Below, in pieces: positions 17,615 to 62,103 of a stretch of 64,000 bases of DNA. Source of the DNA: a virus (taxonomy: Duplodnaviria > Heunggongvirae > Uroviricota > Caudoviricetes). The translations under genes were made by a program, and so were the position numbers. The stretch spans positions 170,836-234,835 of IMG/VR virus record IMGVR_UViG_3300001336_000001; one strand, given 5' to 3'. The notes below the pieces were generated by a model. The model saw only the letters and a list, made by a program, of their open reading frames with translations, ran no database searches and had not been told where the DNA came from. The first letter of the stretch is position 1; each line of letters opens with the position of its first letter.

Positions 17615-17964
17615 ATTTCTCCAGATTTTAACTTAGCTTTTAACTGGTCTCCAGATATTCTACTACTTCTGGTTCCCTTACCCCCAGTTTTCAACTTATC
17701 CATCTCTTCTTCCATTTTTTCTTCTTTTTTGCGCCCCTCATCTAATAGAAGATTTAAGTAGTTACGCCTTTCGTAAACAGTCATAGACATCACATCTTGG
17801 TATGAAAATCCGATATGTTTAACACATAGATATATCTCTTCTTGTAAATTGGTTTTATAATTCAAAGTCAGGCCAAAAAAACTTGAGTGTAAACGGAAGA
17901 AATCGAGACACAGACCCACCTCCAGGGGTCTTGAAGTCAACTTTTGTATCAACTCCACACTCAA
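17602..17964 (-). CDS. gp51-like baseplate hub/tail assembly protein, probably made as a +1 frameshift extension of the upstream ORF
   Basis: NYKTNLQEEIY..FSYQDVMSMTVYERRNYLNLL resembles gp51; no ATG before this core; T7 run at 17875-17881. Confidence 0.65.
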   Translation of the reverse strand: MSVELIQKLTSRPLEVGLCLDFFRLHSSFFGLTLNYKTNLQEEIYLCVKHIGFSYQDVMSMTVYERRNYLNLLLDEGRKKEEKMEEEMDKLKTGGKGTRSSRISGDQLKAKLKSGEIPNQ

Positions 17965-21522: not shown

Positions 21523-22011
21523 CTAGAATAGTAATATTGCTCTATCAAACCTTAAATCTGCTGTTATGTCTGCAATTCCATCATCATCCATAGATAAATC
21601 ACCAAAGTTAACATTGGTTAACATTGTACCTTGTAATTGCCACTTCTCTATAACTACACCAGTAGGGTCAAGCATCTCTAACTCAATATCTTTTTTATAA
21701 CCAGCAGCATAACCTTGTCTACCTGTTATTGATTCAGATTGTAAACGAACCCATTCCATAATAGCCTGAGCAGCTGATGGTCCAATTGGGTCTCTAAAAG
21801 TAACACTTATAGATTCCCAAGTAAATCTACCGATAACCCAAGTTGATGTATTTAGGAAAGGTATTTCAACCTCATTTTGTGTTATAGAAGGTCTAGCTGC
21901 CGATGCCAACCACCATTCTTGAATACCCAAATCAGCTGGAAATCTTAATAGCCACCTATTTTTCTTTTTGGGTTCATAGGGTTGGGGCATTTTCATTAGT
22001 AAGTCTGCCAT
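21523..22011 (-). CDS. tail tube protein (T4 gp19-like)
   Basis: EPKKKNRW..GRFTWESISVTFRDPI..MEW..YKKDIELEMLDPTG.VIEKWQLQG; directly after the sheath gene. Confidence 0.88.
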   Translation of the reverse strand: MADLLMKMPQPYEPKKKNRWLLRFPADLGIQEWWLASAARPSITQNEVEIPFLNTSTWVIGRFTWESISVTFRDPIGPSAAQAIMEWVRLQSESITGRQGYAAGYKKDIELEMLDPTGVVIEKWQLQGTMLTNVNFGDLSMDDDGIADITADLRFDRAILLF

Positions 22012-25261: not shown

Positions 25262-27376
25262 ATGGAAAAATTGTTAATAATAACACCACACCTATCTACA
25301 GGTGGTCAACCCCAATATGTTCTTAAAAAAATAGAGTTACTTAAATATAAGTATGATATATATTGTGTTGAATACAATTATTTATCACCACATTACGTAG
25401 TCCAAAGAAACTTAATTAAAAAAATAATAGGTGATAAATTTTTTTCAATAGGTGAGAATAATTTAGATTTATGTAATACTATAATTAACATAATTCCTGA
25501 TATAATATGGGTTGAGGAAATTGCTGAAACTTTTATTAAAAAGGAAGAGTGTGAGTTTATATATAATAAAGATAGAATTTGGAAAATTTTAGAAACAACA
25601 CATACATCAGAAGATTTAAGTAATAAAAAAAGTTTTTTACCTGATAAATTTATATTTGTATCTAATTGGTCGGAAAAACAATATAAAAAATTTAATGTAG
25701 AAATATCTATATTACAATATCCAGTTGATACGAAAGTAAAAAGAACAGCTTTTTTTAAAGATTTATTAAGTTTTGATAAAAAATATAAACATGTTTTATG
25801 TGTGGGTCTTTTCACTTCAGGTAAAAATCAGTTATACGCTATTGAGTTAGCTAAAAAATTAAAAGATGAAAAAATTATTTTTCATTTTGTTGGTAATACA
25901 GCACCTAATTTTTCAGATTATTGGCAACCATTACTAGATAATCTACCTGATAATTGTGTATTACATGGAGAAAAAGAAAATGTTGACGAATACATACAAG
26001 CTTGTGATTTATTTTTATTCCCATCTAAATTTGAATTAAATCCTTTGGTAGTTAAAGAAGCTTTATGTTACGAGGAATTACCTATACTAATGTCTAATTT
26101 AGATACTTATTGTGGTCAATATGATAATGTTACTAACATCAGATTTTTAACAAACAAAGTTAATGAAGATGTTTTTATAATTAAAAATATTTTTTTAAAT
26201 AAAGAAAAAACATATAAAGATATTGAAGGTTGGTTTTCTTATGAATGGTTATATGATAAATTTGGTAAATTATCTAAGAATGGTGACACCATCGTTGAAA
26301 TAGGTAGTTGGTTTGGTAAATCAACAAAATATCTTTCTGATAAACTAAATGAACATAATAAAAAAGTTGATTTAATTGTTATTGATACTTTTAAAGGAAC
26401 ACAAAATGAAGAACTACATAAAGAAATAGTAGGTGACGAAAGTATTTATCAAGACTTTTATTACAACGTAAATAACCCCAACATAACTATAATTAAAGAA
26501 AGTTCACACGAGGCCTCTAAGTTATTTACTAATGGTTCTATAGATTATTTAATGATTGATGGTGACCATAGCTATGAAGGTACTAAACAAGACATTCAAG
26601 ATTACTTCTATAAAGTAAAACCTGGTGGGATTATATCAGGTGATGATTATAAAGCGTTTCAAGGTGTTAGAATGGCGGTTGATGAGTTTTTTGTTGGGGC
26701 AGACATGAAAACCTCTGACAATTTACATTGGTATTACAAAATTCCTAAAATACAGATTATTCACATGTCAACACTACCCAAACAGAAAAGAGCTCAAGTT
26801 TCTATTGCAAACATTAAAGAACTATCTAGATATAATATAGATATTACATATATCGAAAATGAATTATATGATGGTGAATTAAATTTAGATAACTACAGAA
26901 ATCTAAGTAATACAAATGTAAATAAAGGACATTACGGTTGTTATTTAGCACATAAACAAGCAATATATAGTATGTCTGAAAAATATGATTATACAATTAT
27001 ATTAGAAGAAGATGCTTATATTTTCGAAGATTTAAAAACATTTGTTGATGTGGTTCATAAAGCAATATTTGAGTGTATTAAAAATGATGTTTATTTTGTG
27101 TCATTTGGTTCGTTCCCATTACAATCTGAACTTAAACCTTATAATGATTTGTTTGACGAATGTTGGCACCAATCATTAGCACATTGTTACATGATACCAA
27201 ACAAATACAAAAATTGGTATGTTGATAAATTTGAAAATAACCCGTGGGATTCCGCTGACATATGGTTTAATCATATTTTTTGTCATGATAGAAAAACTAG
27301 ATTGATGACAAAAAAAATGTATAGCAAACAATTAGATGGTTATTCACTAATAGATAAAATAGAAAAAAAATATTAA
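25262..27376 (+). CDS. multidomain GT4 glycosyltransferase / class I SAM methyltransferase / GT25-like glycosyltransferase
   Basis: HLSTGG..VGLFTSGKNQ..FPSKFELNPLVVKEA; VEIGSWFGKS..IDGDHSYE..KPGGIISGDDY; GCYLAH..ILEEDA. Start moved from GTG 25256 to ATG 25262. Confidence 0.8.
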   Translation: MEKLLIITPHLSTGGQPQYVLKKIELLKYKYDIYCVEYNYLSPHYVVQRNLIKKIIGDKFFSIGENNLDLCNTIINIIPDIIWVEEIAETFIKKEECEFIYNKDRIWKILETTHTSEDLSNKKSFLPDKFIFVSNWSEKQYKKFNVEISILQYPVDTKVKRTAFFKDLLSFDKKYKHVLCVGLFTSGKNQLYAIELAKKLKDEKIIFHFVGNTAPNFSDYWQPLLDNLPDNCVLHGEKENVDEYIQACDLFLFPSKFELNPLVVKEALCYEELPILMSNLDTYCGQYDNVTNIRFLTNKVNEDVFIIKNIFLNKEKTYKDIEGWFSYEWLYDKFGKLSKNGDTIVEIGSWFGKSTKYLSDKLNEHNKKVDLIVIDTFKGTQNEELHKEIVGDESIYQDFYYNVNNPNITIIKESSHEASKLFTNGSIDYLMIDGDHSYEGTKQDIQDYFYKVKPGGIISGDDYKAFQGVRMAVDEFFVGADMKTSDNLHWYYKIPKIQIIHMSTLPKQKRAQVSIANIKELSRYNIDITYIENELYDGELNLDNYRNLSNTNVNKGHYGCYLAHKQAIYSMSEKYDYTIILEEDAYIFEDLKTFVDVVHKAIFECIKNDVYFVSFGSFPLQSELKPYNDLFDECWHQSLAHCYMIPNKYKNWYVDKFENNPWDSADIWFNHIFCHDRKTRLMTKKMYSKQLDGYSLIDKIEKKY

Positions 27377-27379
27377 AAT

Positions 27380-28558
27380 ATGAACTCACAAGAATTTAAG
27401 GATACGATTATTTCAGAAATAGAAAAAACTAAAATATCACATAAAGAAGTCACCAAACAAATTAATATTAACCTACATTTTGTTGGTAATCCGTTTTTGG
27501 AGATAACAGGTGATGTTGATGATAATTATGATGTTATATTTTATGATGGTGAAGAAATAATACACCAAACAACTTTAAAAAATAATATGTGGACCAAGGT
27601 TAATAGAAAATACTATACCGATTGGAGAGTTGTTGTTTTTAATAGTGATGGGTTAAAAATTTTTGAAAAGGAACTTAATTTACACAATAAAAGGGTTTAT
27701 ATCAGTTTTGGCTCGAAATCTTTAGGTGATACATTAGCTTGGGTTCCTTATCTTGAGGAATTTAGAAAAAAACACAATTGTGAATTAATTGTTTCGACTT
27801 TCTTAAATGAGTTATTTTCTGAACAATACCCAAACATAGAGTTTGTAAAACCTGGTGAGGTTGTTGATAATTTATATGCTATGTATGAATTAGGGTGGTT
27901 TTATAATGATGATGGTGATATTGATTATTTTAGAACACCGAACAATTTTAGAACACAACCCCTACAAAAAACAGCTACCGATATATTAGGTTTAGATTAT
28001 ATTGAAATTAGACCTAAACTAAAATTAACTGAAGTCGTGGTTAGTCTTAAAAAAGTGGGTATCGCTATTCATGGTACTGCTCAGTCAAAATACTGGAATA
28101 ATGAAAAAGGATGGCAAGAAGTTGTTGATTACCTAAAAAGTCTTGATTATGAGATAATGTTATATTCTGTTGAGGGTGATGGATATATGAGTAATACTCA
28201 CCCGAAAGGTATTCAACAATTCCCGAAAAGTTCACTACAAGATGTTATTTATGATATGCAAACTTGTGAGTTTTTTATTGGTATAGGTTCTGGTTTGTCT
28301 TGGTTGGCATGGTCTGTTGGTCTACCTATTGTTTTAATATCTGGTTTTAGTGAGGAATACACCGAAACTCAAAAAAATACATATAGAGTTATTAACAAAA
28401 ATGTTTGTACTGGTTGTTTTAATTCACATAGATTAGATGCTGGAGACTGGAATTGGTGTCCATTTAATAAAGGGACTGAAAGACAATTTGAATGTACAAA
28501 ATCTATAACATCAAATATGGTTATATCATCTATAAGTAAATTATTAACTAAAAATTAA
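27380..28558 (+). CDS. Aah/TibC-family protein O-heptosyltransferase-like (GT-B)
   Basis: SKSLGDTLAW.PY; KYWNN..GWQEVVDYL; FFIGIGSGLSWLAW..VLISGFS; Cys cluster CTGCFN..WNWCP..FECTKSIT. Confidence 0.78.
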   Translation: MNSQEFKDTIISEIEKTKISHKEVTKQININLHFVGNPFLEITGDVDDNYDVIFYDGEEIIHQTTLKNNMWTKVNRKYYTDWRVVVFNSDGLKIFEKELNLHNKRVYISFGSKSLGDTLAWVPYLEEFRKKHNCELIVSTFLNELFSEQYPNIEFVKPGEVVDNLYAMYELGWFYNDDGDIDYFRTPNNFRTQPLQKTATDILGLDYIEIRPKLKLTEVVVSLKKVGIAIHGTAQSKYWNNEKGWQEVVDYLKSLDYEIMLYSVEGDGYMSNTHPKGIQQFPKSSLQDVIYDMQTCEFFIGIGSGLSWLAWSVGLPIVLISGFSEEYTETQKNTYRVINKNVCTGCFNSHRLDAGDWNWCPFNKGTERQFECTKSITSNMVISSISKLLTKN

Positions 28559-29105
28559 TCACATAAGGACAAAAACAATGTTGGTCATTATGATATTGGT
28601 TTTTCGGTATTTCAGTTGTTATTTTTACTGAATCTAAAATTAATGAATCACCATAACCATATCTATCACCTCCTTTTGGGTCAAAATACGTGAAGACACC
28701 ACTTTCTCTTAAATATCTATCAACTATTAATGTTCTAAATAACATCATATTATAACAATCAGCATCATAAAAAATACCATCAAATGTTTTGTTTAGTTTA
28801 GGTAAAGTTTCAATCCAATCACCTTCTACTATAATAACATTAGGTTTATCTTTAGCCCATTCTTTAGCAATTTCGAGTATCTGAGGGTTAACCTCACAAA
28901 TAGTATGACTTTTAACACCCTTTTCTTGAATATAGTTAGTAGATATACCCATACCAAAACCAATTTCTAATATATCACCATTTGGTAGTAAATCAACGTG
29001 AGCCTTCATTAACTCACGTTCCCAATCCATCATAACAAAAATATTAGGATTATCTTTTACAACAATCCTATCTTCTTGAAAAATTAACTCTTTATCTTTT
29101 GTCAT
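28548..29105 (-). CDS. SAM-dependent methyltransferase, Rmt2/guanidinoacetate methyltransferase-like
   Basis: MMDWERELMKAH..ILEIGFGMGIS..HTICEVNPQI..GDW..FDGIFYD. Confidence 0.75.
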   Translation of the reverse strand: MTKDKELIFQEDRIVVKDNPNIFVMMDWERELMKAHVDLLPNGDILEIGFGMGISTNYIQEKGVKSHTICEVNPQILEIAKEWAKDKPNVIIVEGDWIETLPKLNKTFDGIFYDADCYNMMLFRTLIVDRYLRESGVFTYFDPKGGDRYGYGDSLILDSVKITTEIPKNQYHNDQHCFCPYVINF

Positions 29106-29443
29106 TATCTTCTACACCTATCTATTGTTATAAATGAAACACCATCCCACTCATATATGTCCGTACCATTTGAATAAAACCCAATATTAGCCAATCTATC
29201 ACTACAAGTTGAATATAAGGTACCCATTGACTGATTTGATGATGTGGACTCGTCAAGATAATACACACTCTCATTGGCACTACAAACTCTATCTATAGAT
29301 TGGTCATACCTTAATCTTAAATCAACACATACAATTCTAGGTGGTATTCTAACATCAGAAATAAAACTTAACCTACCTATGTTAACACCACTTATACCAG
29401 TTATTAAACTAAAGTCAACACCACTAATATTTTGTATACCCAT
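29105..29443 (-). CDS. small Cys-containing virion/fibre-associated protein
   Basis: ORF track 29105..29461; more likely start at ATG 29443 (MGIQNISGV); ISGV repeats. Confidence 0.55.
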   Translation of the reverse strand: MGIQNISGVDFSLITGISGVNIGRLSFISDVRIPPRIVCVDLRLRYDQSIDRVCSANESVYYLDESTSSNQSMGTLYSTCSDRLANIGFYSNGTDIYEWDGVSFITIDRCRR

Positions 29444-29453
29444 AATTAATATT

Positions 29454-30857
29454 TTATACAACCACCCATATATTATCAGGGTTAAACCTAATCGTTACCC
29501 AAGTACTCCTACCCTGAACACCACCAGTTATATTATGACCGATAATCCTAACCACTGCGTTACTTGATGGTGCTGATTCAGATACAAACCCATTAGTTGT
29601 CCAAACATATAATGGAGCACCTGGTGTTACATTTGCTAAGTCTGTGTGGAAACCAACTAATGTTATAATACCTTCAATTAATACATCTAGGTCACCCTCT
29701 GCTTCAGCACCATTTAAACTTATACCTAATAAACTTAATGATGAATTTGTGCTTGCGTTAGCAGGCTGCCATTGTCCTGAGGAATCTAAAGAAACCAACA
29801 TACCACGGCCTACACCACTAAGTCCGTTTATTTGATTATTAAGTATGGTTCCACTTACTACCACTGCTGACGTTGAGAATGAGTCTCCTATATTGATGAC
29901 CGAAGACACACCTTCCCACATAGTATATTGGGAATTCTGTAACGGCACATCTCCAGCGTGAAAGTCATTTCTAACAGTAGTTCTACCCCTAGAAACTGTA
30001 TTTACATCAATAAATATTTGGTTTTGGTTCCCAGCTATAATTGATATTTCATCATCATTTGGGAAACTGATGAAAGTATCTGTATCACCTTTATGTATAA
30101 TTTTATCAGTAATAGTAACATCACCATTTACATCTAATTTCGTATCTGGTGATGTTAAACCGATACCAACGTTATAGTCAATTTCATCTTTATCAAATAA
30201 AATAGTCTTACTATCTACATTAACATTAAATACTTCCCCACCATCAGGTACATCATTTAATACAAAAGCATTGTCCAATTCATTTAAATCAAATTTAGCA
30301 TTTTTTAATACGTGTAACTGATAATCACCATAATCAGGATTACTAGTTATACCATTCCCAATTCCTACTCCCCCATCTACTAATAACCCATTACTTGGTG
30401 CGGCGGTATTGATGAAGTTAGAACCTATACTAACAGAACCATTAACACTTAATTTACTAGCAGGGGATGTTGTACCTAAACCAACATTCCCACCATTATT
30501 AAATATATTCGATGAATTTAATACCCAAGTCGAACCATTCCAATAAGTAGTGTTACCAGCTAATGAACCTGAAGATAAAAAACCACTAGTCCCTCCACTA
30601 CCCGATGTTCCTGAAATTCCATTAACCCCAGAAGTTCCACTAGTCCCAGATACTCCCGAAGTACCATTAATACCTGATGTACCACTAGTTCCGTTTGTAC
30701 CATTTACACCAGAAGTCCCAGATGTGCCACCCAAAGATATACTAGACCTTACTTTAACTAAACCATCTGCATCTTTAACTAATATATCTGTTTCAGACAC
30801 ACCAGCAGATACATCCATTATTATTAAACCCTTCCTTGCAACAAATTCACTAGCCAT
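29454..30857 (-). CDS. tail fibre/spike-like protein with a short Gly-X-Y (GTS) tract
   Basis: 16 GXY triplets; NVG(L/I)G.TSP..KL repeats; shares a module with the 2370-aa fibre. Confidence 0.7.
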   Translation of the reverse strand: MASEFVARKGLIIMDVSAGVSETDILVKDADGLVKVRSSISLGGTSGTSGVNGTNGTSGTSGINGTSGVSGTSGTSGVNGISGTSGSGGTSGFLSSGSLAGNTTYWNGSTWVLNSSNIFNNGGNVGLGTTSPASKLSVNGSVSIGSNFINTAAPSNGLLVDGGVGIGNGITSNPDYGDYQLHVLKNAKFDLNELDNAFVLNDVPDGGEVFNVNVDSKTILFDKDEIDYNVGIGLTSPDTKLDVNGDVTITDKIIHKGDTDTFISFPNDDEISIIAGNQNQIFIDVNTVSRGRTTVRNDFHAGDVPLQNSQYTMWEGVSSVINIGDSFSTSAVVVSGTILNNQINGLSGVGRGMLVSLDSSGQWQPANASTNSSLSLLGISLNGAEAEGDLDVLIEGIITLVGFHTDLANVTPGAPLYVWTTNGFVSESAPSSNAVVRIIGHNITGGVQGRSTWVTIRFNPDNIWVVV

Positions 30858-30990
30858 TCTTAGACACTTTTTAAAATATGGACATATAAGTGTCTATTTG
30901 GTGATATTTTACTCACCACAATAATAGATTAATCACTTTTTCACTGTCCAAAGTAATTGTTATATATAAATATGAAGCAAAAAGAAAAAG

Positions 30991-31704
30991 TTATAATCCG
31001 AAACGAGATTTTGTTGCGTTATAATTTTGTAGAACTTCTGCTGAGGAAATGGCTCGGTTATATATTTTAATTATGGCAATGTTTCCATCAAAATAATAAC
31101 TATTAGGATATGTTCTTCCAATTTGAAAAAAACAAGAAGAAATCGTGTCACTTGGTTGGTAAATACCTGTTGTTTTTTCTTCAGATAACTCACCATTTAA
31201 GTAAATTCTATTAAAATCCGTTCCTTGCCAATTAGCGACTATATGGTACCATGTATTAATAGATAAATTTGAAGTTTTTACTCCATCATTTTGTGTGGCA
31301 TTTGTTCCATTTGATGTAGATAACATAATTGAATCAGAGCCACTTAATTCAAATAACACATAATGTAAATTATTCCATGATGCCCCATCACCTTTCATTA
31401 CAATAGTATTATCATATGAACCACCTAAACTATCTAATTTAACCCAAGCTTCAATTGTTCCACCTAAGTTTAATATTAAATCATTACTAATAGGTACACT
31501 TATATGGTCATCTACATTATCAAATGTAATACTACCATAATTACCATTATCAAATGCTGGGCCATTAGTTAATGTGCCACTATTTCCATTTTTACTTAAA
31601 TCTTTCCAACTTGTGCCACTGCCTGGGTAGGATTTTGGATTTGCTGCGTCTAAATGCAACACTAAATCATTAGTCAATGCTATTGGTCCTCCGTAGCTTC
31701 CCAT
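30991..31704 (-). CDS. LamG/concanavalin A-like lectin-domain virion protein
   Basis: LHLDAAN..TIEAWVK..WYHIVA..IYLNG..FDGNIAIIKIYNRAIS..EVLQNYNA. Confidence 0.8.
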   Translation of the reverse strand: MGSYGGPIALTNDLVLHLDAANPKSYPGSGTSWKDLSKNGNSGTLTNGPAFDNGNYGSITFDNVDDHISVPISNDLILNLGGTIEAWVKLDSLGGSYDNTIVMKGDGASWNNLHYVLFELSGSDSIMLSTSNGTNATQNDGVKTSNLSINTWYHIVANWQGTDFNRIYLNGELSEEKTTGIYQPSDTISSCFFQIGRTYPNSYYFDGNIAIIKIYNRAISSAEVLQNYNATKSRFGL

Positions 31705-31705
31705 A

Positions 31706-31960
31706 TTAAATATTGTTTAAATCCTGCTCAGACCACTCACTTGTTTCGAGTATAGTTAATATTTCTTCTGAAGTATATGGGCCTTCTTTTGTTATTAAGC
31801 TATTTATTGAAGTAGGTATTGTGCTTCCAATCCACTTAACTATCGTTTTAGTGTTATCTAAAGATTTTCTTAAAGTTTCTTCTGAATATTCCATTACTTG
31901 TGAAAAATCTATATTGTCAACCTCTGACATATTAAAAATCATATATTTTCTATTATTCAT
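31706..31960 (-). CDS. small hypothetical protein in the lectin cluster, 84 aa
   Basis: ORF track; tight packing with neighbours. Confidence 0.7.
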   Translation of the reverse strand: MNNRKYMIFNMSEVDNIDFSQVMEYSEETLRKSLDNTKTIVKWIGSTIPTSINSLITKEGPYTSEEILTILETSEWSEQDLNNI

Positions 31961-31981
31961 TTTTTATATTTTTATATAAAT

Positions 31982-33349
31982 TTATAAACCAAATCTTGAT
32001 TTTGTTGCGTTATAGTTTTTAAGTATTTCTTCATCAGTCAACGCTGTGTTATAAACTTGGCAGGAAAAAATATCTCCTATAAAAGGATTAGTATATCCGT
32101 CTCCTATTATAATATCTGAAGAGCCATTTGCTGTAGAAACATACCCTCCAGCATTTTGAGTGCTAATTAGCTGTCCATTTTTATACCATTTACATGCATT
32201 TGTAGACTGGTCTCTTGTCACTGATATAAACGCCAACTCATCTATGCCAACTGTAAATGTAGAACCTCTACCCACATATGGTGTACTATTACCTCCATTT
32301 GTCCCAAAATAATAATTTATAGTTCCATTAGTTTCGTGTGTTAAAGTACCACTTCCTCCATAGGCTTGATTATAAGGGTTTCTTCTCAAACTATTTGCTC
32401 CAGTTCCTGGTTTTAACCACATACAGATTGTCTGAGCGCTAGAAAAGTCCATGGAACTTGCATCAAATGGTATTCGAATAGAATCATTTGCACCATCAAA
32501 TTTTAAACTACCTTTATTTTCTAATTCAAAAGTGGGGCCATTTATAAAATTTCCGTTATTTCCATTATTAGACAAATCGAAGGAAATGTCAGTTCTATTA
32601 TTTAATAAATCATCAAGACTAGGTTCACTACCATCTACTATATCTAATCTGGGATATACAGAATGATGTATTACCATATCTGTCACAGTAGCATTAGGTT
32701 GGTAAACAGCTAGAGTTCTACTTCTAGCTGTAGTTGTTTCAGCTCTCCATACATAATCAGCCCTTGAAATATTTGATATTTTACCGCTGTTTATCGTATA
32801 TAATCCACTATCAACATGATTACTTCCAGTGCCACTACCTTCTGGCCATACATGACCTACTACTAAAACCCACTCATTAAGCGGTAGCTGTGAACTAGTT
32901 GGTACAGCACTAGAAAACGTAAAATATGGATTTGTTTCATTATTTCCAGTATCTCTGTTCAAAACTCCATTAGTAGAACCATATCCATTTAACCCAGCAT
33001 AATATCTAGCAAAAGTTGCATCACCATTACTTACTCTACGTTCCCACCAGCTCATTCTGTACATTTTTGTATTATCAATAGATATTGGTGTCATATATAT
33101 ACCTCCACCTTTCGTAGAGCCTGCCACATTATAAGACTCCCATACAACGACCTGATTACCCCAAGGGTCATCTGAAATTAAACGCCTATTTCGGGTGCTA
33201 AAAGCCCCAAATGAGCCTATACCACCAGTTTGACCATTCTCCCATATAGTATAATTATATATTCGGTCTCTAAATTTAATAGATTTTGTATTAGCGGCAT
33301 CAAAATAAAATACTAGCCCATTTTTTATGTTATCTGGTCCTGTTATCAT
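31982..33349 (-). CDS. LamG/concanavalin A-like protein with an extra inserted beta-rich domain
   Basis: FDAAN N-terminus and YNTALTDEEILKNYNATKSRFGL C-terminus; ~230-aa insert. Confidence 0.78.
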   Translation of the reverse strand: MITGPDNIKNGLVFYFDAANTKSIKFRDRIYNYTIWENGQTGGIGSFGAFSTRNRRLISDDPWGNQVVVWESYNVAGSTKGGGIYMTPISIDNTKMYRMSWWERRVSNGDATFARYYAGLNGYGSTNGVLNRDTGNNETNPYFTFSSAVPTSSQLPLNEWVLVVGHVWPEGSGTGSNHVDSGLYTINSGKISNISRADYVWRAETTTARSRTLAVYQPNATVTDMVIHHSVYPRLDIVDGSEPSLDDLLNNRTDISFDLSNNGNNGNFINGPTFELENKGSLKFDGANDSIRIPFDASSMDFSSAQTICMWLKPGTGANSLRRNPYNQAYGGSGTLTHETNGTINYYFGTNGGNSTPYVGRGSTFTVGIDELAFISVTRDQSTNACKWYKNGQLISTQNAGGYVSTANGSSDIIIGDGYTNPFIGDIFSCQVYNTALTDEEILKNYNATKSRFGL

Positions 33350-34041
33350 AATCCAAATCTTGATTTTGTTGTGTTATAATTTTGTAGAACTTCTTCAGCA
33401 GTCAATGCTCTTTCATATATCATTGCATTAGACACTTTGCCATCTAAATACCTAGTACCACCTATTGTAACATTCCCTGTTCTAACACGTATTGGAGATG
33501 AAGCAAAAAGAGTTGTGCTAAATAATACACCATTAATATATAGTGTTAACCTACCACCATCGTATGTTCCTGTAAAATTTGTCCATAAACCATCATATGT
33601 AGCAGCAACAGCAGCGGACACTACTATTTGTCGTCTAACATTAGAATCATTTACGATTTCCAAAAAAATTCTACCTTCATATGTTATACTAATAAAATAA
33701 GAAGCATTTGACCCACCAAAACTAACACCCTTTGTTATTATATCTGAAAATACACCACGATTATAAAGTGGAATATTTACCCATGTCGATAATGTAATAC
33801 CAGCTGTTATATTTAAAGAGTCTGGATTTCCTAAAGTAACATAGTCATCTACACCATCAAACGAAATAACACCTTTTGATTCCGAATCTAAAGTAGGTCC
33901 ATTTGTAAGAACTCCATTATTATTATAGTCTGTTAAATCGAACCACACAGTTCCACTTCCTGGGTAGGATTTTGGATTTGCTGCATCTAAATATAGTGCT
34001 AAATCATCTGTAATTATTTTTGGCCCTCTATAAAATCCCAT
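33346..34041 (-). CDS. LamG/concanavalin A-like lectin-domain virion protein
   Basis: LYLDAANPKSYPGSG..GTYDG..LYINGV..IYERALTAEEVLQNYN. Confidence 0.8.
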   Translation of the reverse strand: MGFYRGPKIITDDLALYLDAANPKSYPGSGTVWFDLTDYNNNGVLTNGPTLDSESKGVISFDGVDDYVTLGNPDSLNITAGITLSTWVNIPLYNRGVFSDIITKGVSFGGSNASYFISITYEGRIFLEIVNDSNVRRQIVVSAAVAATYDGLWTNFTGTYDGGRLTLYINGVLFSTTLFASSPIRVRTGNVTIGGTRYLDGKVSNAMIYERALTAEEVLQNYNTTKSRFGL

Positions 34042-34043
34042 AA

Positions 34044-37000
34044 TTAAATAATTCTAACGCCTGTTTTAATTGTCCAAGTACCTCCACCTGCGACAATATC
34101 TCCTAGTAACCTAACATCACCTGAAGAAATATCAACACTAAATGAAACATTAGATGTAGAACTGCCTAAATCCGCAGTAGAAGTATCTGTGAACTCAACA
34201 TTTGTACCATCCCAAACAGCTATAACAGTACCTGCTCGAAGTGTAGTTCCGCTCATTACATAATAATCAAAATAAGCAGCTTGACCTAACGTAGAATCAA
34301 AAGTGGTACACACATTTGTTCCAGCCACTAACCCAATATTAATTGACGTATTCATCAATAGTGAACCATCAATTTGAACTCTATCATCAGAATTAACTGT
34401 TAAAATAGGGATACCAGATATGTCATTAACTGAGAATATATCTCCTATTAAATTGTCATCAACTGAGAATAATTGACCTGATGAACCAACAACATTAAAC
34501 AAAGTAGCCCCTGATGTTGTACCACTAATTTCTACATCTCCGTGAACATCTAGCTTTGCATCTGGACTTGTTGTCCCAATACCAACATTAGTACCGTTAT
34601 TAAATATATTTGATGAGTTCAAGACCCAAGAAGAACCATTCCAAAATGGTGTATTACCTGCTACTAAACCTGGTGATAAAAAGCCTGAAGTTCCCGATGA
34701 ACCGCTCGTCCCATCAACACCCGATGTTCCAGAAGAACCGCTTGCTCCTGAAGAGCCAGAGGTTCCATCAACACCACTCGTTCCTGAAGAGCCACTTGTT
34801 CCTGAAGAGCCACTTGTTCCATCAACACCCGATGTTCCAGAAGAACCGCTTGCTCCTGAAGAGCCAGAGGTCCCAGAAGAACCACTCGTTCCAGACGTAC
34901 CATTAACACCAGATGTTCCACCTGAACCACCTGTTCCATTTGTACCATCAATACCTGAAGTGCCACCTGTTCCATTTGTACCATTTATACCCGAAGTTCC
35001 ATCAACTCCTGAAGTTCCACCACTACCTGATGTTCCTGATGTTCCACCACTACCAGAAGTTCCTGAAGAGCCTGATGTACCATTAATTCCCGATATTCCT
35101 GATGTACCATTAACACCTGAAGTTCCGTTTATACCACTCGTACCATTAACACCAGAGGTACCACCACTACCAGAAGTACCCGATGTACCATTTATGCCTG
35201 ATGTACCTGAAGTTCCGTTTATACCACTAGTTCCAGAACTACCACTAGTCCCAGAACTACCTGAGGTACCACCACTTCCTGATGTTCCACTAGTTCCACT
35301 TGTACCTCCACTTCCCGAAGTCCCTGAAGAACCTGAAGAGCCTCCTGAACCACTTGTACCTGATGTACCACCACTACCTGATGTACCTGAAGTTCCATTT
35401 ACGCCAGATGTACCTCCACTACCAGATGTACCCCCGCTTCCTGATGAACCACTAGTCCCACTTATACCATCAATACCTGATGTACCTGAAGAACCACCAC
35501 TACCCGAAGAACCTGAAGTTCCCGAAGTACCACCAATTCCATTTGTGCCATCTATTCCTGATGTCCCACCACTACCTGAAGTTCCTGAAGTACCTCCTGA
35601 ACCACTTGTTCCAGATGTTCCACCTGAACCACTAGTACCTGATGTACCAGATGTACCATCTATTCCAGACGTACCTCCGCTACCTGATGTGCCTGAAGTA
35701 CCATTTATACCTGATGTACCGCCAGAACCCCCTGTTCCAGAAGTTCCCCCACTTCCTGAAGTGCCTGATGTCCCATCTATACCTGAAGAACCACCACTGC
35801 CTGAAGTACCCGAAGTACCTGATGTACCACTACTACCCGAACTACCCCCTACACCACTAGTACCACCGCTACCTGAAGTCCCAGACGTACCACCTGTTCC
35901 GTTTGTTCCATCTATACCTGACGTACCACCGCTACCTGAAGTACCATTAACACCCGATGTCCCTCCACTACCTGAAGTACCACTATTTCCTGAAGTTCCT
36001 GAAGTACCGCCAGAACCAGAAGTTCCGTTAACACCAGATGTACCGTTGATTCCAGATGTTCCGCCAGAGCCGCTTGTTCCTCTAGTCCCAGAAGTACCAC
36101 CACTACCCGATGTTCCTGACGTACCATTAACACCAGATGTACCATTAACCCCCGAAGTACCATTAACTCCGCTTGTACCACCAGAGCCACTTGTTCCAGA
36201 TGTTCCAGAAGTTCCGTTAACTCCAGAAGTTCCATTTACACCACTACTACCAGATGTGCCTGATGTACCACCAGAGCCAGATGTTCCTGAAGTACCCCCA
36301 CTTCCTGACGTTCCATTAACACCAGATGTACCTCCAGAGCCAGAAGTACCTGAAGTCCCCCCACTTCCAGAAGTGCCTGATGTACCTCCTGAACCACTTG
36401 TTCCAGACGAACCTCCACTGCCAGAAGTCCCACTTGTACCATTTACCCCTGAAGTTCCACCACTTCCTGATGTACCACTTGAACCACTTGTTCCACTTGT
36501 ACCACCACTACCCGAAGTGCCAGATGAACCTGATGTTCCACTAGAACCTGATGTTCCACTAGAACCTGATGTTCCACCACTACCAGAAGTTCCATCTATT
36601 CCCGAAGTACCATCAACACCTGAAGTGCCCGAAGTTCCATTTACACCAGATGTGCCTCCACTTCCTGATGTTCCTGATGTACCATTAATTCCTGATGTAC
36701 CATTAATTCCTGATGTACCACCACTTCCCGAAGTTCCATCAATACCCGAAGTTCCACTAGTACCCCCGCTACCAGATGTTCCATTTATACCTGATGTACC
36801 ACCAGTTCCGTTTGCGCCATCTATTCCTGATGTACCTGAAGAACCACCACTACCCGAAGAACCTGATGTACCGCCTGTTCCGTTTGTTCCATCAACTCCA
36901 GAAGTTCCAGAAGAACCATCAACACCACTCGTTCCTGAAGAACCGCTTGTTCCTGAAGAACCAGAAGTTCCATCTATACCTGATGTTCCCGAAGAACCTG

Positions 37001-40000
37001 AAGAGCCGTCTGAACCACTTGTACCTGATGTACCACCAGTTCCATTTGTACCATCTATGCCTGATGTACCGCCTGTTCCGTTTGTTCCGTCAATACCTGA
37101 TGTACCGCCTGTTCCATTTGTTCCATCTATTCCTGAAGTACCATTTAACCCATTTGTTCCATCAATTCCTGAACTACCACTTGTACCTGAAGTTCCGTTA
37201 ACACCACTAGTCCCATCTATTCCTGATGTACCGCTACTTCCTGAAGTTCCATCAATACCCGAAGTCCCATCAATACCCGAAGAACCACTACTTCCTGATG
37301 TTCCTGATGTACCACTAGTTCCATTCGTACCGTCTATTGCTGATGTTCCTGATGTACCACTTGCACCACTACTACCAGACGAACCACCTGTTCCATTAGT
37401 TCCATTAACACCTGATGTACCACCACTTCCCGAAGTCCCCGATGTCCCATCAGTCCCGTTTGTTCCATCAATACCCGAACTACCACCAGTTCCGTTGGTA
37501 CCATCTATACCTGAAGTTCCTGAAGAACCCCCCGTTCCATTTGTTCCATCAATACCCGATGAACCACTAGTACCGTCTATACCACTTGTACCATCTATTC
37601 CTGAAGTTCCACTACTACCACCAGTACCATTTGTCCCATTAACACCTGATGTTCCTGAAGAACCACCCGTACCACTAGTTCCATTATTTCCTGAACTACC
37701 ACTTGTACCTGAAGTTCCTGATGTACCACTTGAACCACTTGTACCCGAAGTCCCGTTAACACCACTAGTTCCTGATGAACCTGATGTGCCACCAGTCCCG
37801 TTTGTCCCGTCTATTCCCGATGTACCTCCACTACCTGAAGTACCTGATGTTCCACCAGTACCACTTGTACCATCTATTCCTGATGTACCTGAAGAACCAC
37901 CACTACCCGAAGAACCTGATGTACCGCCTGTTCCGTTTGTTCCATTTATACCTGATGTTCCAGAAGTTCCTGAAGAACCATCAACTCCAGAAGTTCCTGA
38001 AGAACCATCTATACCTGATGTTCCCGAAGACCCACTTGTCCCCGAACTACCTGAAGTTCCATCAACACCACTCGTTCCTGAAGAGCCGCTTGTTCCAGAA
38101 GAACCGCTTGTTCCATCTATACCTGATGTTCCAGAAGAACCACTTGTGCCTGAAGTTCCTCCACTACCTGAAGTACCTGATGTCCCATCTATACCTGATG
38201 TACCACCACTGCCTGAAGTACCCGAACTACCCCCTAAACCACTAGTACCACCGCTACCTGAAGTCCCAGACGTACCACCTGTTCCGTTTGTTCCATTTAT
38301 ACCTGACGTACCACCGCTACCTGATGTGCCTGAAGTACCATTTATACCTGATGCACCATTTATACCTGAAGTACCACTTGTGCCTCCACTTCCAGATGTA
38401 CCATTAACTCCAGAGGTACCGCCTGAACCACTTGTACCTGAAGAACCACCACTACCTGAAGTTCCTGATGTACCATTAACACCACTTGTACCATTAACAC
38501 CACTTGTACCATTAACACCTGACGTACCTGAACTACCACCACTACCCGAAGTGCCAGATGAACCTGATGTTCCACTAGAACCTGAAGAGCCGCCTGAACC
38601 ACTTGTACCTGATGTTCCACCACTACCAGAAGTTCCATTTACACCTGATGTACCACCACTACCAGAAGTTCCATTTACACCTGATGTACCACCACTACCT
38701 GATGTTCCTGATGTACCACTACTACCTGATGTTCCCGAAGTTCCAGAAGAACCACTACTACCTCCAGTGCCACTTGTCCCATCTACACCACTAGTACCAC
38801 CGCTACCCGAAGTCCCAGAAGTCCCCCCAGAACCACTTGTTCCTCCACTACCTGATGTACCACTAGAACCTGAAGAACCTCCTGTACCACTTGTGCCATC
38901 AATACCTGATGTACCTGAAGAGCCAGAAGTTCCACCACTTCCAGATGTGCCAGAAGTACCACTACTACCACTTGTACCATTAACACCTGATGTTCCTGAA
39001 GAACCTCCAGTTCCATCTACACCTGATGTACCCCCTGAACCACTTGTTCCTGAAGTCCCTGAAGAACCACTTGTCCCTGATGAACCGCTAGAGCCAGATG
39101 TCCCACTAGAACCACCACTACCAGAAGCGCCTGATGTGCCTCCACTACCTGATGTACCACCTGAACCACTTGTACCTGATGAACCACTACTCCCTGAAGT
39201 TCCTGATGTACCACCACTACCCGAAGTTCCGCTAGTACCATTAACACCCGATGTACCACCCGAACCACTAGTCCCACTTGAGCCACCACTTCCTGAAGTC
39301 CCTCCAGAGCCAGATGTCCCACTAGAACCTCCTGAACCACTTGTGCCTGAAGTTCCTGATGAACCTGAAGAACCACCGCTACCTGAAGTACCATTAACAC
39401 CAGATGTTCCACCTGAACCGCTTGTTCCAGACGTACCATTAACACCAGATGTACCATTAATACCTGAAGTACCATTAACACCAGATGTTCCACCACTTCC
39501 TGATGTTCCATTAATTCCTGATGTACCACTTGTGCCTCCACTTCCAGATGTACCATTAACACCAGATGTACCATTAATACCTGAAGTACCATTAACACCA
39601 GATGTTCCTGATGTACCATTAACACCACTTGTACCATTAACACCTGACGTACCTGAACTACCACCACTACCCGAAGTGCCAGAAGAACCACTACTACCAC
39701 CAGTTCCATTTGTACCATCTATGCCTGATGTTCCACCACTACCACTTGTTCCATCAATACCAGATGTACCACCTGTTCCGTTTGTTCCTGAAGAACCCGA
39801 TGTTCCAGACGAACCAGATGTACCTCCTGTTCCGTTTGTTCCATCAACACCTGATGTACCTCCACTACCAGAAGTGCCTGATGAACCAGAAGAACCTGAT
39901 GTACCCGAAGTACCACCAGAGCCAGAAGTGCCTGATGTACCTCCACTTCCAGATGTACCTCCAGAACCACTTGTGCCTGAAGTTCCTCCACTACCTGAAG

Positions 40001-41156
40001 TACCACTAGAGCCACCGCTTCCTGAGGTGCCTGATGTTCCTGATGAACCTCCAGAACCAGATGTACCACTAGAACCTCCTGAACCAGAAGTTCCTGAAGT
40101 GCCAGCATCAGTTCTACTCTCAACTTGACCCGTAGTAGTGTTTACAACTAAAACTTGGTTAGATGTACTACCACTCGGTACATCCAATATATGTATAGTA
40201 TTTGTATTAGTATCACCAGTAACAATTAAGTCACCACTTACTGTATAATCACCATTTAAAATCTTTGTGTATTCCCATACACTATTAGTTGAATTAAATG
40301 ATATTAAGTCGCCATTTGTTTCGCCACTGGTTTGTAAATTATGTAAATCATTTAATTTTTTACCTAAATCAGGTCTTACGAATATTGAACCGTTAGCATC
40401 AGCTTTAATAACTAAAGCCATCTCTATTTTAAGATTTGGTTCGATAGGTTCAAATTTAGTTAAACCACCTGCTATTGTTGGTGAAACATATAAAATATCA
40501 CCATCAACCCAAGTTTCACCATATAATGAACCAGTAGTATCTATATTTCTAACTAAACCAAAATTAGTAACATAACCATCATCACCATTATCAATATCTT
40601 GTGTCACAATACCCATTGTAAAATAATAAGGTATTGTATCGTCAGCAATCATGTAGTCAGCTAATATCCTACCAGAATTACCCAAAGTACCAGCCGCTCT
40701 TATTACTTTACCGTTATCTAATTGAGAACCAGTTTGGTTTTTAACTAAAAAATATTGTTCTAATCCTATTTGTTGGGTAACTTCACCATTGTTACCCATA
40801 CCTATTTCTAAAGTACCATCATCAACAGACCAATTAAGTCTACCAATTACATGTTGTGAGTTACCAGAATAATTTGTGTTAAAATCTATATAATCAACAT
40901 CAGAAATTGTATTAACAGTCAACCCACTATTAATAGTCACAGCCCCGTCAACAGTACCACCAGATATTATAGATAATCTATCCCAACCTATTTGTCTAAC
41001 TTCTTGAGGAGCTGTATCACCCGATGTGTATATAGTGTACATCTTAGCGTCAGCTGTATTTAACGCAACCTCGCCTGTTGTTAACCCACTTAATGGTGGT
41101 ATTTTATTAGGTACATTCGACCTCTTTAAAAGGAACGTATTCTTTCTATTTGCCAT
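34044..41156 (-). CDS. giant fibre protein with an ~1807-residue proline-free Gly-X-Y (GTS/GSG) repeat
   Basis: N-terminal fibre-anchor-like motif (LKRS..P..L..GEVALNTAD); repeat core; NVGIGTTSP and beta-rich C-terminus. Confidence 0.85.
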   Translation of the reverse strand: MANRKNTFLLKRSNVPNKIPPLSGLTTGEVALNTADAKMYTIYTSGDTAPQEVRQIGWDRLSIISGGTVDGAVTINSGLTVNTISDVDYIDFNTNYSGNSQHVIGRLNWSVDDGTLEIGMGNNGEVTQQIGLEQYFLVKNQTGSQLDNGKVIRAAGTLGNSGRILADYMIADDTIPYYFTMGIVTQDIDNGDDGYVTNFGLVRNIDTTGSLYGETWVDGDILYVSPTIAGGLTKFEPIEPNLKIEMALVIKADANGSIFVRPDLGKKLNDLHNLQTSGETNGDLISFNSTNSVWEYTKILNGDYTVSGDLIVTGDTNTNTIHILDVPSGSTSNQVLVVNTTTGQVESRTDAGTSGTSGSGGSSGTSGSGGSSGTSGTSGSGGSSGTSGSGGTSGTSGSGGTSGSGGTSGTSGSGGTSGTSGSSGSSGTSGSGGTSGVDGTNGTGGTSGSSGTSGSSGTNGTGGTSGIDGTSGSGGTSGIDGTNGTGGSSGSSGTSGSGGSSGTSGVNGTSGVNGTSGTSGVNGTSGINGTSGVNGTSGSGGTSGTSGINGTSGSGGTSGVNGTSGINGTSGVNGTSGTSGSGGTSGVNGTSGSGGSSGSSGTSGTSGSGGSSGTSGSGGTSGSGGSSGTSGSGGTSGVNGTSGTSGSGGTSGTSGSSGSSGTSGSGGTSGSGGTSGASGSGGSSGTSGSSGSSGTSGSSGTSGTSGSGGTSGVDGTGGSSGTSGVNGTSGSSGTSGTSGSGGTSGSSGTSGIDGTSGTGGSSGSSGTSGSGGTSGSGGTSGTSGSGGTSGVDGTSGTGGSSGSSGTSGTSGSSGTSGTSGSGGTSGVNGTSGSGGTSGVNGTSGSGGTSGTSGSGGSSGSSGTSGSSGTSGSGGSSGTSGVNGTSGVNGTSGVNGTSGTSGSGGSSGTSGSGGTSGVNGTSGSGGTSGTSGINGASGINGTSGTSGSGGTSGINGTNGTGGTSGTSGSGGTSGLGGSSGTSGSGGTSGIDGTSGTSGSGGTSGTSGSSGTSGIDGTSGSSGTSGSSGTSGVDGTSGSSGTSGSSGTSGIDGSSGTSGVDGSSGTSGTSGINGTNGTGGTSGSSGSGGSSGTSGIDGTSGTGGTSGTSGSGGTSGIDGTNGTGGTSGSSGTSGVNGTSGTSGSSGTSGTSGTSGSSGNNGTSGTGGSSGTSGVNGTNGTGGSSGTSGIDGTSGIDGTSGSSGIDGTNGTGGSSGTSGIDGTNGTGGSSGIDGTNGTDGTSGTSGSGGTSGVNGTNGTGGSSGSSGASGTSGTSAIDGTNGTSGTSGTSGSSGSSGIDGTSGIDGTSGSSGTSGIDGTSGVNGTSGTSGSSGIDGTNGLNGTSGIDGTNGTGGTSGIDGTNGTGGTSGIDGTNGTGGTSGTSGSDGSSGSSGTSGIDGTSGSSGTSGSSGTSGVDGSSGTSGVDGTNGTGGTSGSSGSGGSSGTSGIDGANGTGGTSGINGTSGSGGTSGTSGIDGTSGSGGTSGINGTSGINGTSGTSGSGGTSGVNGTSGTSGVDGTSGIDGTSGSGGTSGSSGTSGSSGTSGSSGTSGSGGTSGTSGSSGTSGSGGTSGVNGTSGTSGSGGSSGTSGSGGTSGTSGSGGTSGTSGSGGTSGVNGTSGSGGTSGTSGSGGTSGTSGSSGVNGTSGVNGTSGTSGTSGSGGTSGVNGTSGVNGTSGVNGTSGTSGSGGTSGTRGTSGSGGTSGINGTSGVNGTSGSGGTSGTSGNSGTSGSGGTSGVNGTSGSGGTSGIDGTNGTGGTSGTSGSGGTSGVGGSSGSSGTSGTSGTSGSGGSSGIDGTSGTSGSGGTSGTGGSGGTSGINGTSGTSGSGGTSGIDGTSGTSGTSGSGGTSGTSGSGGTSGTSGSGGTSGIDGTNGIGGTSGTSGSSGSGGSSGTSGIDGISGTSGSSGSGGTSGSGGTSGVNGTSGTSGSGGTSGTSGSGGSSGSSGTSGSGGTSGTSGTSGSGGTSGSSGTSGSSGTSGINGTSGTSGINGTSGTSGSGGTSGVNGTSGINGTSGVNGTSGISGINGTSGSSGTSGSGGTSGTSGSGGTSGVDGTSGINGTNGTGGTSGIDGTNGTGGSGGTSGVNGTSGTSGSSGTSGSSGASGSSGTSGVDGTSGSSGTSGSSGTSGVDGTSGSSGASGSSGTSGVDGTSGSSGTSGFLSPGLVAGNTPFWNGSSWVLNSSNIFNNGTNVGIGTTSPDAKLDVHGDVEISGTTSGATLFNVVGSSGQLFSVDDNLIGDIFSVNDISGIPILTVNSDDRVQIDGSLLMNTSINIGLVAGTNVCTTFDSTLGQAAYFDYYVMSGTTLRAGTVIAVWDGTNVEFTDTSTADLGSSTSNVSFSVDISSGDVRLLGDIVAGGGTWTIKTGVRII
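34683..40103 (-). repeat. Gly-X-Y triplet repeat, ~602 triplets with degenerate codons
   Basis: 5421 nt = 1807 codons from first to last Gly; only one Gly-position substitution (AID) seen. Confidence 0.92.
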
Positions 41157-61997: not shown

Positions 61998-62103
61998 TGG
62001 GTTATTCGGAGCATTCCAATATACAATAAATGAAAAAGGGTTATTCGGTGTTTGTTTTTTTGACAAAATAATGATAACAAAAGATGGGTTTGGAGTATTA
62101 TGA
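61984..62103 (+). CDS. small hydrophobic peptide, 39 aa (MVVFSGLFGAFQYTINEKGLFGVCFFDKIMITKDGFGVL)
   Basis: Fills the gap exactly; overlaps the upstream stop and ends in an ATGA overlap with ugd. Confidence 0.45.
   Translation: MVVFSGLFGAFQYTINEKGLFGVCFFDKIMITKDGFGVL

Follow-up and report, generated by a model that had tools for sequence, protein, structure and literature searches.

In a large tailed phage we find a pair of adjacent genes that, on balance, probably glycosylates two collagen-like fibres encoded close by. The stretch analysed, called the window below, comprises 64,000 nucleotides (bases 170836-234835) of the IMG/VR virus record IMGVR_UViG_3300001336_000001 (Caudoviricetes), a 287,855-bp record with direct terminal repeats, and the gene pair occupies window positions 25262-28558. 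Its first gene encodes a fusion of two predicted glycosyltransferases (GTs) and a methyltransferase, and its second encodes a relative of TibC and Aah, members of the BAHT enzymes (bacterial autotransporter heptosyltransferases). BAHT enzymes are cytoplasmic and act on proteins and peptides, with TibC and Aah modifying Ser in NSGG and TSA contexts (PMC4358343). We infer that the pair constitutes a cytoplasmic protein O-glycosylation cassette of the phage, with the Gly-X-Y arrays of a 2370-residue and a 467-residue fibre as its acceptors. All of the elements described in an initial annotation of the window were present where it had placed them (Table 1), and its central proposal, that a TibC-type enzyme and partner transferases act on the fibres, gained strong comparative support from co-occurrence, GT4 fusions and bacterial gene neighbours, although the heptose and several accessory parts that it included were not supported.

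Identity of the enzyme pair

The protein encoded by 27380-28558 scored 292.1 bits against TIGR04414, the equivalog model for Aah and TibC (cut-off 200), over profile positions 37-373 of 374, whereas models for lipopolysaccharide (LPS) heptosyltransferases reached at most 23 bits. It matched TibC in the PDB (4rap) over residues 51-386 with an E-value of 3.9e-61, and N-terminal features of TibC are retained. In TibC, Asp110 is the catalytic base, Thr226 and Lys230 are ligands of the beta-phosphate, Trp305 contacts O4 of the heptose, and Arg286 contacts N1 of the adenine and confers specificity for ADP-sugars, its mutation abolishing or strongly reducing activity; all five residues have been termed highly conserved in the family (PMC4358343). 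The first four align to D117, T233, K237 and W308 of the window protein, and the cysteines of the TibC iron finger (C339, C342, C358 and C370) align to C343, C346, C360 and C372. The Aah/TibC relationship noted initially, with its Cys cluster, was borne out by both profile and alignment. All 54 dereplicated viral sequences keep the catalytic Asp, the Thr/Lys pair, the Trp and the four Cys, and, judged from this alignment, the catalytic apparatus of the window enzyme looks intact.

A tree of 107 dereplicated TibC-family sequences, built by a quick method and rooted at its midpoint, from which we make no claim on the direction of transfer, contains two clades, each with an SH-aLRT support of 100. 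Clade A (18 sequences) holds the characterised enterobacterial enzymes and is drawn from Enterobacterales, Burkholderia/Caballeronia, Oxalobacter, Acetobacter and Elusimicrobia. The window enzyme lies apart from these in clade B (89 sequences), where it is nested, as are most of the viral sequences, among environmental bacteria.

The upstream gene encodes three domains in one protein, for which the ATG at 25262, the start noted initially, is the likely start codon because the N-terminus then resembles those of its homologues. A GT4 domain (about residues 1-320) matches PF00534 at residues 172-283 (46.6 bits, cut-off 26.4, E-value 3.7e-12). The middle domain (about 340-490) is of the TylF/NovP methyltransferase type, with matches spanning residues 346-479 to Methyltransf_24 (69.4 bits, cut-off 26.3, E-value 5.7e-19) and to TylF (PF05711; 33.5 bits, cut-off 23, E-value 3.3e-8), and with NovP as a weak PDB match (E-value 0.89). 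The last 217 residues (about 490-706; nucleotides 26723-27373) form a GT-A domain whose score against GT25 (PF01755), 21.8 bits, is under the cut-off of 24; 5 of 11 homologous segments from other phages did match GT25, the best with an E-value of 7e-8. PDB sequence searches with the fusion and with this domain gave weak matches only. An AlphaFold (AF2) model of the domain, built on an alignment of the homologous segments (pLDDT 82), found its best solved fold in the human collagen galactosyltransferase COLGALT1 (PDB 9evk; E-value 2.4e-8, TM-score 0.68), a GT25 enzyme, followed by Mimivirus R655. The homologous segments and the predicted fold support a GT25-like assignment.

The candidate acceptors

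The giant fibre consists of an N-terminal domain (residues 1-351), a Gly-X-Y array (352-2160) and a C-terminal domain (2161-2370). The array comprises 602 Gly-X-Y triplets in register, broken once by a G-to-A change, and none of its 1809 residues is Pro. Thr (54%) and Ser (28%) together take 82% of X positions and Ile or Val 16%; Y is Ser in 62% of triplets (375 Ser), Gly in 18%, Asn in 12% and Asp in 7%. GTS accounts for 278 triplets, GSS for 89, GSG for 80, GVN for 33 and GID for 30, with others making up the remainder. The array has roughly 870 Ser/Thr, 81 SGG tripeptides, 82 N-x-S/T motifs and 46 charged residues; it had first been described as a repeat mostly of Gly, Ser and Thr with many SGG tripeptides and N-G-T sequons. 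As the array has neither Pro nor Lys, any linkage to it must be to Ser or Thr. The Pfam Collagen model (PF01391) matches its last triplets (35.6 bits, cut-off 27.2), although the array may adopt a polyglycine-II-type or other fold instead. We rejected an antisense artefact or an assembly error as the source of the array, given that its terminal domains are conserved, its flanking genes lie on the same strand and its DNA repeats, whose periods are all multiples of 9, are degenerate (66-90% matches).

The short fibre has 17 Gly-X-Y triplets (GTS/GVN/GIN) at residues 43-93, and the 52-residue junction after its repeat is 73% identical to residues 2159-2210 of the giant fibre. These two are the only ORFs (open reading frames) in the window's genome with a Gly-X-Y run rich in Gly, Ser and Thr, and both lie within 13 kb of the TibC-like enzyme.

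Association between enzyme and repeat

A profile-based scan of 2.9 million viral contigs found a TibC relative in at least 572. We took 88 TibC loci of viruses from two scans and 80 bacterial loci from a third, in which each prokaryotic species was represented by a single genome. We scored an ORF as Gly-X-Y when it contained a 60-residue window of at least 80% Gly, Ser and Thr and kept the Gly-X-Y register for 30 residues or more. After dereplication of the TibC-centred viral loci at 90%, such ORFs were present in 30 of 53; of the 31 loci whose flanks both reach at least 5 kb, 21 have one. These ORFs are up to 3094 residues long and usually lie just downstream of the TibC gene in convergent orientation. 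As a control we took 80 loci centred on homologues of the window phage's tail sheath (61-74% identity), set aside 2 that carried a GT4-TibC pair, and found no Gly-X-Y ORF in the 78 that remained (870 kb), a difference from the TibC loci with a Fisher p of 1.8e-15. Sampling in the opposite direction, in which viral contigs were picked solely by the DNA pattern (GGN WSN WSN)x8, gave a TibC-like gene in 12 of 44 searchable records and in 6 of the 11 that were at least 60% complete. The co-occurrence with GTS-repeat proteins on which the initial annotation had staked its proposal is therefore seen in both directions. All five records examined in full (G000-G003 and that of Microcystis phage Mel-JY01) carry GTS or GSS fibres, the nearest lying within about 3 kb of the TibC gene in G000, G001, G002 and Mel-JY01 and about 16 kb from it in G003; in G002, two giant GSS fibres adjoin the enzyme and a third is 48 kb away.

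Relatives of the window phage offer natural contrasts. In loci whose sheath is 64-70% identical, three (L189, L201 and L249) keep an orthologous N-terminus of the fibre, and another (L215) keeps its orthologous C-terminus together with a cluster of LamG genes and an 84-residue protein; in all four, the longest Gly-X-Y run of the fibre is 12 residues or there is none, and no GT4 or TibC gene was found between the fibre cluster and the sheath. From these comparisons, the repeat array and the enzyme pair appear to come together within one lineage. We also observed, at L215:6865-9692 (+), three tandem paralogous ORFs of about 310 residues, each ending '...GG(K/R)GGDGLVIIT(V/A)(S/W)', between the LamG cluster and the sheath, which is the site of the GT4-TibC pair in the window phage.

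The same association is found in bacteria. In Methylococcales, Arenicellales and Burkholderiales, a clade-B gene lies 77-200 nucleotides from small (GTS)n, (GSS)n or (GTT)n ORFs, which open with a leader resembling a signal peptide or that of a lipoprotein; the Arenicellales case includes a complete chromosome. None of the 18 sequences of clade A has a Gly-X-Y neighbour, and every Gly-X-Y case falls in clade B. The bacterial association does not depend on phage tail modules, and no other argument speaks as strongly for the repeat itself as the acceptor. Repeat proteins flanking TibC-like genes of Arenicellales/Methylococcales (L124:8516-12601, L116:11190-12083 and L117:8844-9806), some of which end in poly-Asp, may represent an unrecognised family of bacterial glycoproteins.

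Mel-JY01 (L011, PP395634.1) is a cultured phage. Its record opens with a frame of at least 1016 residues (L011:2-3049, +) that carries GSS/GTS Gly-X-Y repeats and lies on the strand opposite to the annotated 'hypothetical' coding sequences 1-651 and 739-2298, and further GTS-rich frames follow the GT4-TibC fusion gene (L011:9143-9983, +). The deposited annotation probably calls antisense shadow ORFs here and misses the fibre.

Partner and accessory genes

The GT4 partner is a regular feature of the viral loci. The first nine related IMG/VR loci to be examined all have a homologue of the GT4 part immediately 5' of the TibC-like gene; among all 88 viral loci it is present in 82 and directly upstream in 60, while just 7 of the 80 bacterial loci have it. 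In Mel-JY01 the GT4 and TibC-like domains form one protein of 1226 residues, and L010 encodes a 1634-residue protein composed of GT9/TibC-like, FkbM methyltransferase, GT4 and TibC-like parts. Database relatives of the TibC-like enzyme are often fused to FkbM, GT4, GT25 or Methyltransf_24 domains. Other tailoring genes differ from locus to locus (GT2, GT8, O-FucT-like, 2-oxoglutarate (2OG)-Fe(II) oxygenases, a sulfotransferase); these variable genes point to modification of repeat proteins, and one 2OG oxygenase, of the prolyl-hydroxylase type, adjoins a collagen-like gene.

That oxygenase belongs to an island in a small phage contig that looks like a complete collagen-modification island, in which L003:4661-11890 encodes, in order, a collagen-like protein, the oxygenase, GT2, GT4 and a TibC-like protein with a 240-residue extension; the triplets of the collagen-like protein are GYT/GDT, then GEQ/GAQ, then GPD/GGP. 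One protein without a Pfam match, encoded in a phage contig of 385 kb (L002:18226-21093, -), exceeds 955 residues and is built of repeats of about 18 residues, 'STISGGxxNTISGxxSxx', which bear SGG and recall the passenger repeats of autotransporters. It lies 7 kb from a TibC-like gene, separated from it by a sulfotransferase and a pectinesterase-like protein of 1305 residues. Two further loci (L007:1113-3329 and L009:3516-5681) encode immunoglobulin (Ig)-like-repeat proteins with mucin-like tails (poly-Thr/Pro-Ser/poly-Ser or Thr-Pro/Glu-Pro) directly 5' of strings of glycosyltransferases that end in GT4 and TibC-like genes.

The cluster methyltransferase of 185 residues is present at 28548-29105, but its homologue occurs in 1 of the 88 viral TibC loci, so it is accessory and not a conserved partner. 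The three LamG proteins are likewise present (E-values from 4e-14 to 3e-24); since LamG proteins are also found in L215, where the enzymes and the repeat are missing, they belong to the fibre cluster and not to the glycosylation system. On these grounds we rejected both the methyltransferase and the LamG proteins as conserved parts of that system.

Proposed mechanism and its alternatives

The TibC-like enzyme would move a monosaccharide, a heptose or another sugar, from a nucleotide sugar made by the host onto Ser, and possibly Thr, of the repeat; the fused GT4 and GT25-like domains would then extend the glycan, and the TylF-type domain would O-methylate a sugar hydroxyl. Since phage particles assemble in the cytoplasm, the cytoplasmic action of BAHT enzymes would suit a phage. 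The product would be a densely glycosylated fibre of the bottle-brush kind, with a length near 0.5 micrometre on the assumption of a collagen helix (1809 residues x 0.286 nm). By analogy with glycosylated BclA (PMC8968730), its glycan could plausibly take the place of Pro and hydroxyproline, stabilising and hydrating the helix and shielding it. The comparisons themselves show the family assignments, the conserved catalytic residues, the GT4-TibC pairing and fusions, and the two-way co-occurrence with Gly-X-Y proteins in phages and in bacteria; the fibre as acceptor, the sequence of steps, the kind of sugar and the function of the glycan are inferred.

Several observations weigh against this reading. 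The known acceptors of BAHT enzymes are strand-loop-strand repeats of beta-helices, whereas the candidate here is a proline-free Gly-X-Y array. The model of the autotransporter repeat (TIGR04415) had no match in the 288-kb genome at an E-value of up to 1, on which ground we rejected an AIDA-type substrate. About a third of the TibC loci with full flanks are without a Gly-X-Y ORF, and at least one record (G032, 84% complete) has seven matches to the repeat pattern and no TibC gene. The fibres themselves are presumed to be virion components from their position and PHROG matches.

The donor is a further difficulty. The equivalent of Arg286 is Val289 in the window protein, and Arg occupies this position in 18 of 18 sequences of the classical clade, in 10 of 35 bacterial sequences of clade B and in 3 of 54 viral sequences. 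With this Arg lost, it is uncertain which nucleotide the donor carries and hence which sugar is transferred, and use of ADP-heptose is doubtful. In the 288-kb genome we found no SIS_2 (GmhA-type isomerase), CTP_transf_like (the cytidylyltransferase fold, as in the adenylyltransferase domain of HldE), NTP_transferase or Epimerase domain. Taken together, the Val at this position, the scarcity of Arg among the viral enzymes and the absence of heptose-pathway genes give no support to heptose, which the initial annotation had named as the transferred sugar, and we rejected phage-supplied donor synthesis for the window phage, whose genome is without genes for synthesis of heptose or of nucleoside diphosphate sugars. 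Of 39 phage records with a TibC gene, 3 also have a GmhA-like gene, and these are near-identical and of one lineage. The three (G049, G050 and G051, the records of L018, L022 and L024) are phages of 218-373 kb with a GT4-TibC pair and a GmhA-like sedoheptulose-7-phosphate isomerase, encoded about 100 kb from the TibC gene (e.g., G050:C1:118722-119126, SIS_2 E-value 3e-22), and this lineage is the sole hint of heptose among the 39 carriers. Two more distant ORFs had also been offered as a source or modifier of sugars. The supposed second GT (60149-61399) is without a significant GT signature (E-value 0.17), and the 'ugd' ORF (62100-62903, +, 267 residues) is partial, matching only residues ~85-308 of UDP-glucose dehydrogenases and lacking the start of the NAD-binding domain and the entire C-terminal UDP-sugar-binding domain; both are 32 kb away, and, with no GT signature in one and a partial match in the other, we rejected them as conserved parts of the system.

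One could envision that the cassette glycosylates mainly other virion proteins with Ser-rich loops, such as other fibres or capsid decoration, or host proteins, and that it lies near the fibres because both occupy a hypervariable accessory region of the tail module. Some loci fit such a reading: in one viral subclade (L076, L083 and L086), the enzyme pair adjoins a non-repeat protein of more than 2300 residues and there is no Gly-X-Y ORF, which also counts against the fibre as acceptor, and the Ig-repeat proteins of L007 and L009 and the 18-residue SGG-repeat protein of L002 stand in place of a Gly-X-Y protein. However, the link holds outside tail modules, the bacterial enzyme abutting small (GTS)n proteins; the tail modules of the control loci are devoid of Gly-X-Y ORFs; the enzyme of G002 stays beside two giant GSS fibres when the third is far off; and relatives with the same fibre but no array are also without the enzymes. 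We therefore consider a different protein target unlikely. The chance is smaller still that the pair acts during infection to alter the envelope of the host (its LPS core, capsule, S-layer or adhesins), blocking superinfection or aiding release in the manner of seroconverting glycosyltransferases. Members of GT9, GT4 and GT25 are mostly enzymes of LPS or polysaccharide, serotype-changing glycosyltransferases of phages are established, and the enzyme genes are transcribed opposite to the structural genes, as a moron would be; but the best match is to a protein-specific equivalog and not to the LPS heptosyltransferases, the iron finger and the N-terminal features of TibC are kept, and both the two-way link with Gly-X-Y proteins and the bacterial neighbours would be left unexplained.

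Nor does it seem at all probable that the TibC-like protein serves mainly as a ring-shaped platform, or chaperone, for folding and assembly of long repeat fibres, with sugar transfer minor or lost. TibC is indeed a dodecameric ring with six substrates (PMC4358343), and both the loss of Arg286, which TibC needs for activity, and the absence of donor-synthesis genes from the phage would accord with such a role, but the invariance of the catalytic Asp, Thr/Lys and Trp across the viral enzymes would not, and their steady pairing or fusion with glycosyltransferases and methyltransferases argues for a real glycan pathway. Least probable of all, and in our view very improbable, is modification of phage DNA bases by glycosylation or methylation as a defence against restriction: although the PHROG label of the methyltransferase domain of the fusion is 'DNA methyltransferase', DNA-glucosylating GT-B enzymes of phages are known and a protein with a Mom-like domain is encoded nearby (19714-21402), that methyltransferase domain scores above the cut-off for TylF, a family of sugar O-methyltransferases, the TibC family acts on proteins, and the association with Gly-X-Y proteins, in phages as well as in bacteria, would again have no explanation.

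Genomic setting

The cassette region lies within the contractile-tail module of the phage (Table 1), in a window with a G+C content of about 30%, and megablast found no close relative of the region at the DNA level among GenBank phages. The methyltransferase gene shares 11 nucleotides with the 3' end of the TibC-like gene, so the enzyme pair on the + strand and the cluster on the - strand converge. The 237-residue LamG protein has homologues in L171 and in L215, the latter without TibC. A scan for promoters and terminators gave a signal no better than in shuffled sequence. Between the genes for the tail tube and the baseplate, an odd site for a domain of the DNA-modification type, lies a gene (19714-21402, -) for a 562-residue protein with a match to DUF7487 (E-value 1.4e-19) and a Mom-like domain just under its cut-off (E-value 1e-5).

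Table 1. Features of the cassette region and the surrounding tail module, in window coordinates.
Feature	Coordinates	Strand	Basis or remark
Baseplate-like ORF	17855-18973		Tail module
Tube-like ORF	21523-22011		Tail module
Tail sheath	22082-24928	-	Phage_sheath_1 and 1C domains; marker for control loci
GT4/TylF-type methyltransferase/GT25-like fusion	25262-27376 (ORF from 25256)	+	Pfam, homologues, AF2 fold
TibC/Aah-family (BAHT) enzyme, viral subclade	27380-28558	+	TIGR04414, PDB 4rap, tree clade B
Class I SAM (S-adenosylmethionine) methyltransferase, 185 residues	28548-29105	-	Methyltransf_25, E-value 6.5e-8
118-residue ORF	29105-29461	-	No Pfam, PHROG or NCBIfam match; no homologue in related loci
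Short fibre, 467 residues	29454-30857	-	Translation; PHROG tail-fibre matches
LamG (Laminin_G_3) protein, 237 residues	30991-31704	-	PF13385, E-value 3.4e-24; PHROG 8510 'virion structural protein'
Conserved 84-residue fibre-cluster protein	31706-31960	-	56% identical homologue in L215, between LamG genes
455-residue protein, C-terminal LamG	31982-33349	-	PF13385, E-value 4e-14, residues 285-442
LamG protein, 231 residues	33346-34041	-	PF13385, E-value 2.8e-21
Giant fibre, 2370 residues	34044-41156	-	Translation; terminal domains with homologues in related phages
Proline-free Gly-X-Y array, proposed acceptor	34677-40103	-	Triplet statistics

Discussion

To our knowledge, glycosylation of the proteins of phage particles has been proven only for a few mycobacteriophages, and we know of BAHT enzymes only as modifiers of virulence autotransporters of Proteobacteria. 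Full-text searches of the literature turned up no article that describes TibC-like enzymes of phages, collagen-like acceptors for BAHT enzymes, or Mel-JY01. The nearest characterised systems are TibC with TibA and Aah with AIDA-I in E. coli (4RAP/4RB4; PMC4358343), which the window pair resembles in homology, in its catalytic residues and four-Cys iron finger, and in the placement of the gene for a cytoplasmic enzyme beside a long, repetitive, Ser/Gly-rich putative acceptor. Unlike TibC and Aah, the window enzyme belongs to a separate clade, has Val in place of Arg286, is encoded by a phage and comes with a GT4 partner, as do its homologues in 82 of the 88 viral loci, and the pair often carries methyltransferase or GT25 domains.

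Mycobacteriophages, according to Freeman et al. 2023 (Cell Host Microbe) as cited in PMC12619734 and PMC12801897, modify their own structural proteins with glycosyltransferases in the host cytoplasm. As portrayed in those citing articles, the enzymes there are unrelated to the ones described here and modify capsid and tail-tube subunits at their C-termini, whereas here an enzyme of the BAHT type presumably acts on a giant collagen-like fibre; the mycobacteriophage modification is described as proven by mass spectrometry, and the system in the window is known from its genes alone. Glycosylated collagen-like proteins are also known, namely BclA of the Bacillus anthracis exosporium and the Mimivirus collagen that is modified by L230 (PMC8968730). 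In these, as is predicted here, a Gly-X-Y protein is decorated with many O-linked sugars, whose presumed role is to hydrate or stabilise its helix. COLGALT1 and, after it, Mimivirus R655 share the fold modelled for the C-terminal domain of the fusion. The repeats of BclA, however, are GPT and its glycans are based on rhamnose and built by other enzymes, and the collagens of animals and of Mimivirus are glycosylated on hydroxylysine.

The glycosylation of Gly-X-Y fibres by the gene pair would, if correct, suggest a subfamily of BAHT enzymes with a different acceptor, arrays of Ser/Thr in Gly-X-Y register, in the IMG/VR contigs that carry a TibC relative (at least 572) and in diverse environmental bacteria. 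More tentatively, and as something possible rather than probable, phages and environmental bacteria could share a widespread, undescribed class of glycoproteins. These would be collagen-like (Gly-Thr/Ser-Ser)n proteins, free of proline, that receive dense O-glycosylation in the cytoplasm from a dedicated subfamily of TibC/Aah-type enzymes without the adenine-reading Arg, maybe with a donor other than ADP-heptose; in the phages, a glycan extended and methylated by the fused GT4, GT25-like and TylF-type domains would then stabilise the helix in place of hydroxyproline and yield virion glyco-fibres half a micrometre long. If fibre glycosylation of this kind is true, it would be common in large aquatic phages, with a bearing on adsorption, on the stability of the particle and on recognition by grazers or by immune systems. 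It would also explain how very long collagen-like helices can be stable without proline, and it would provide a cytoplasmic pair of enzyme and tag for the glyco-engineering of repeat proteins.

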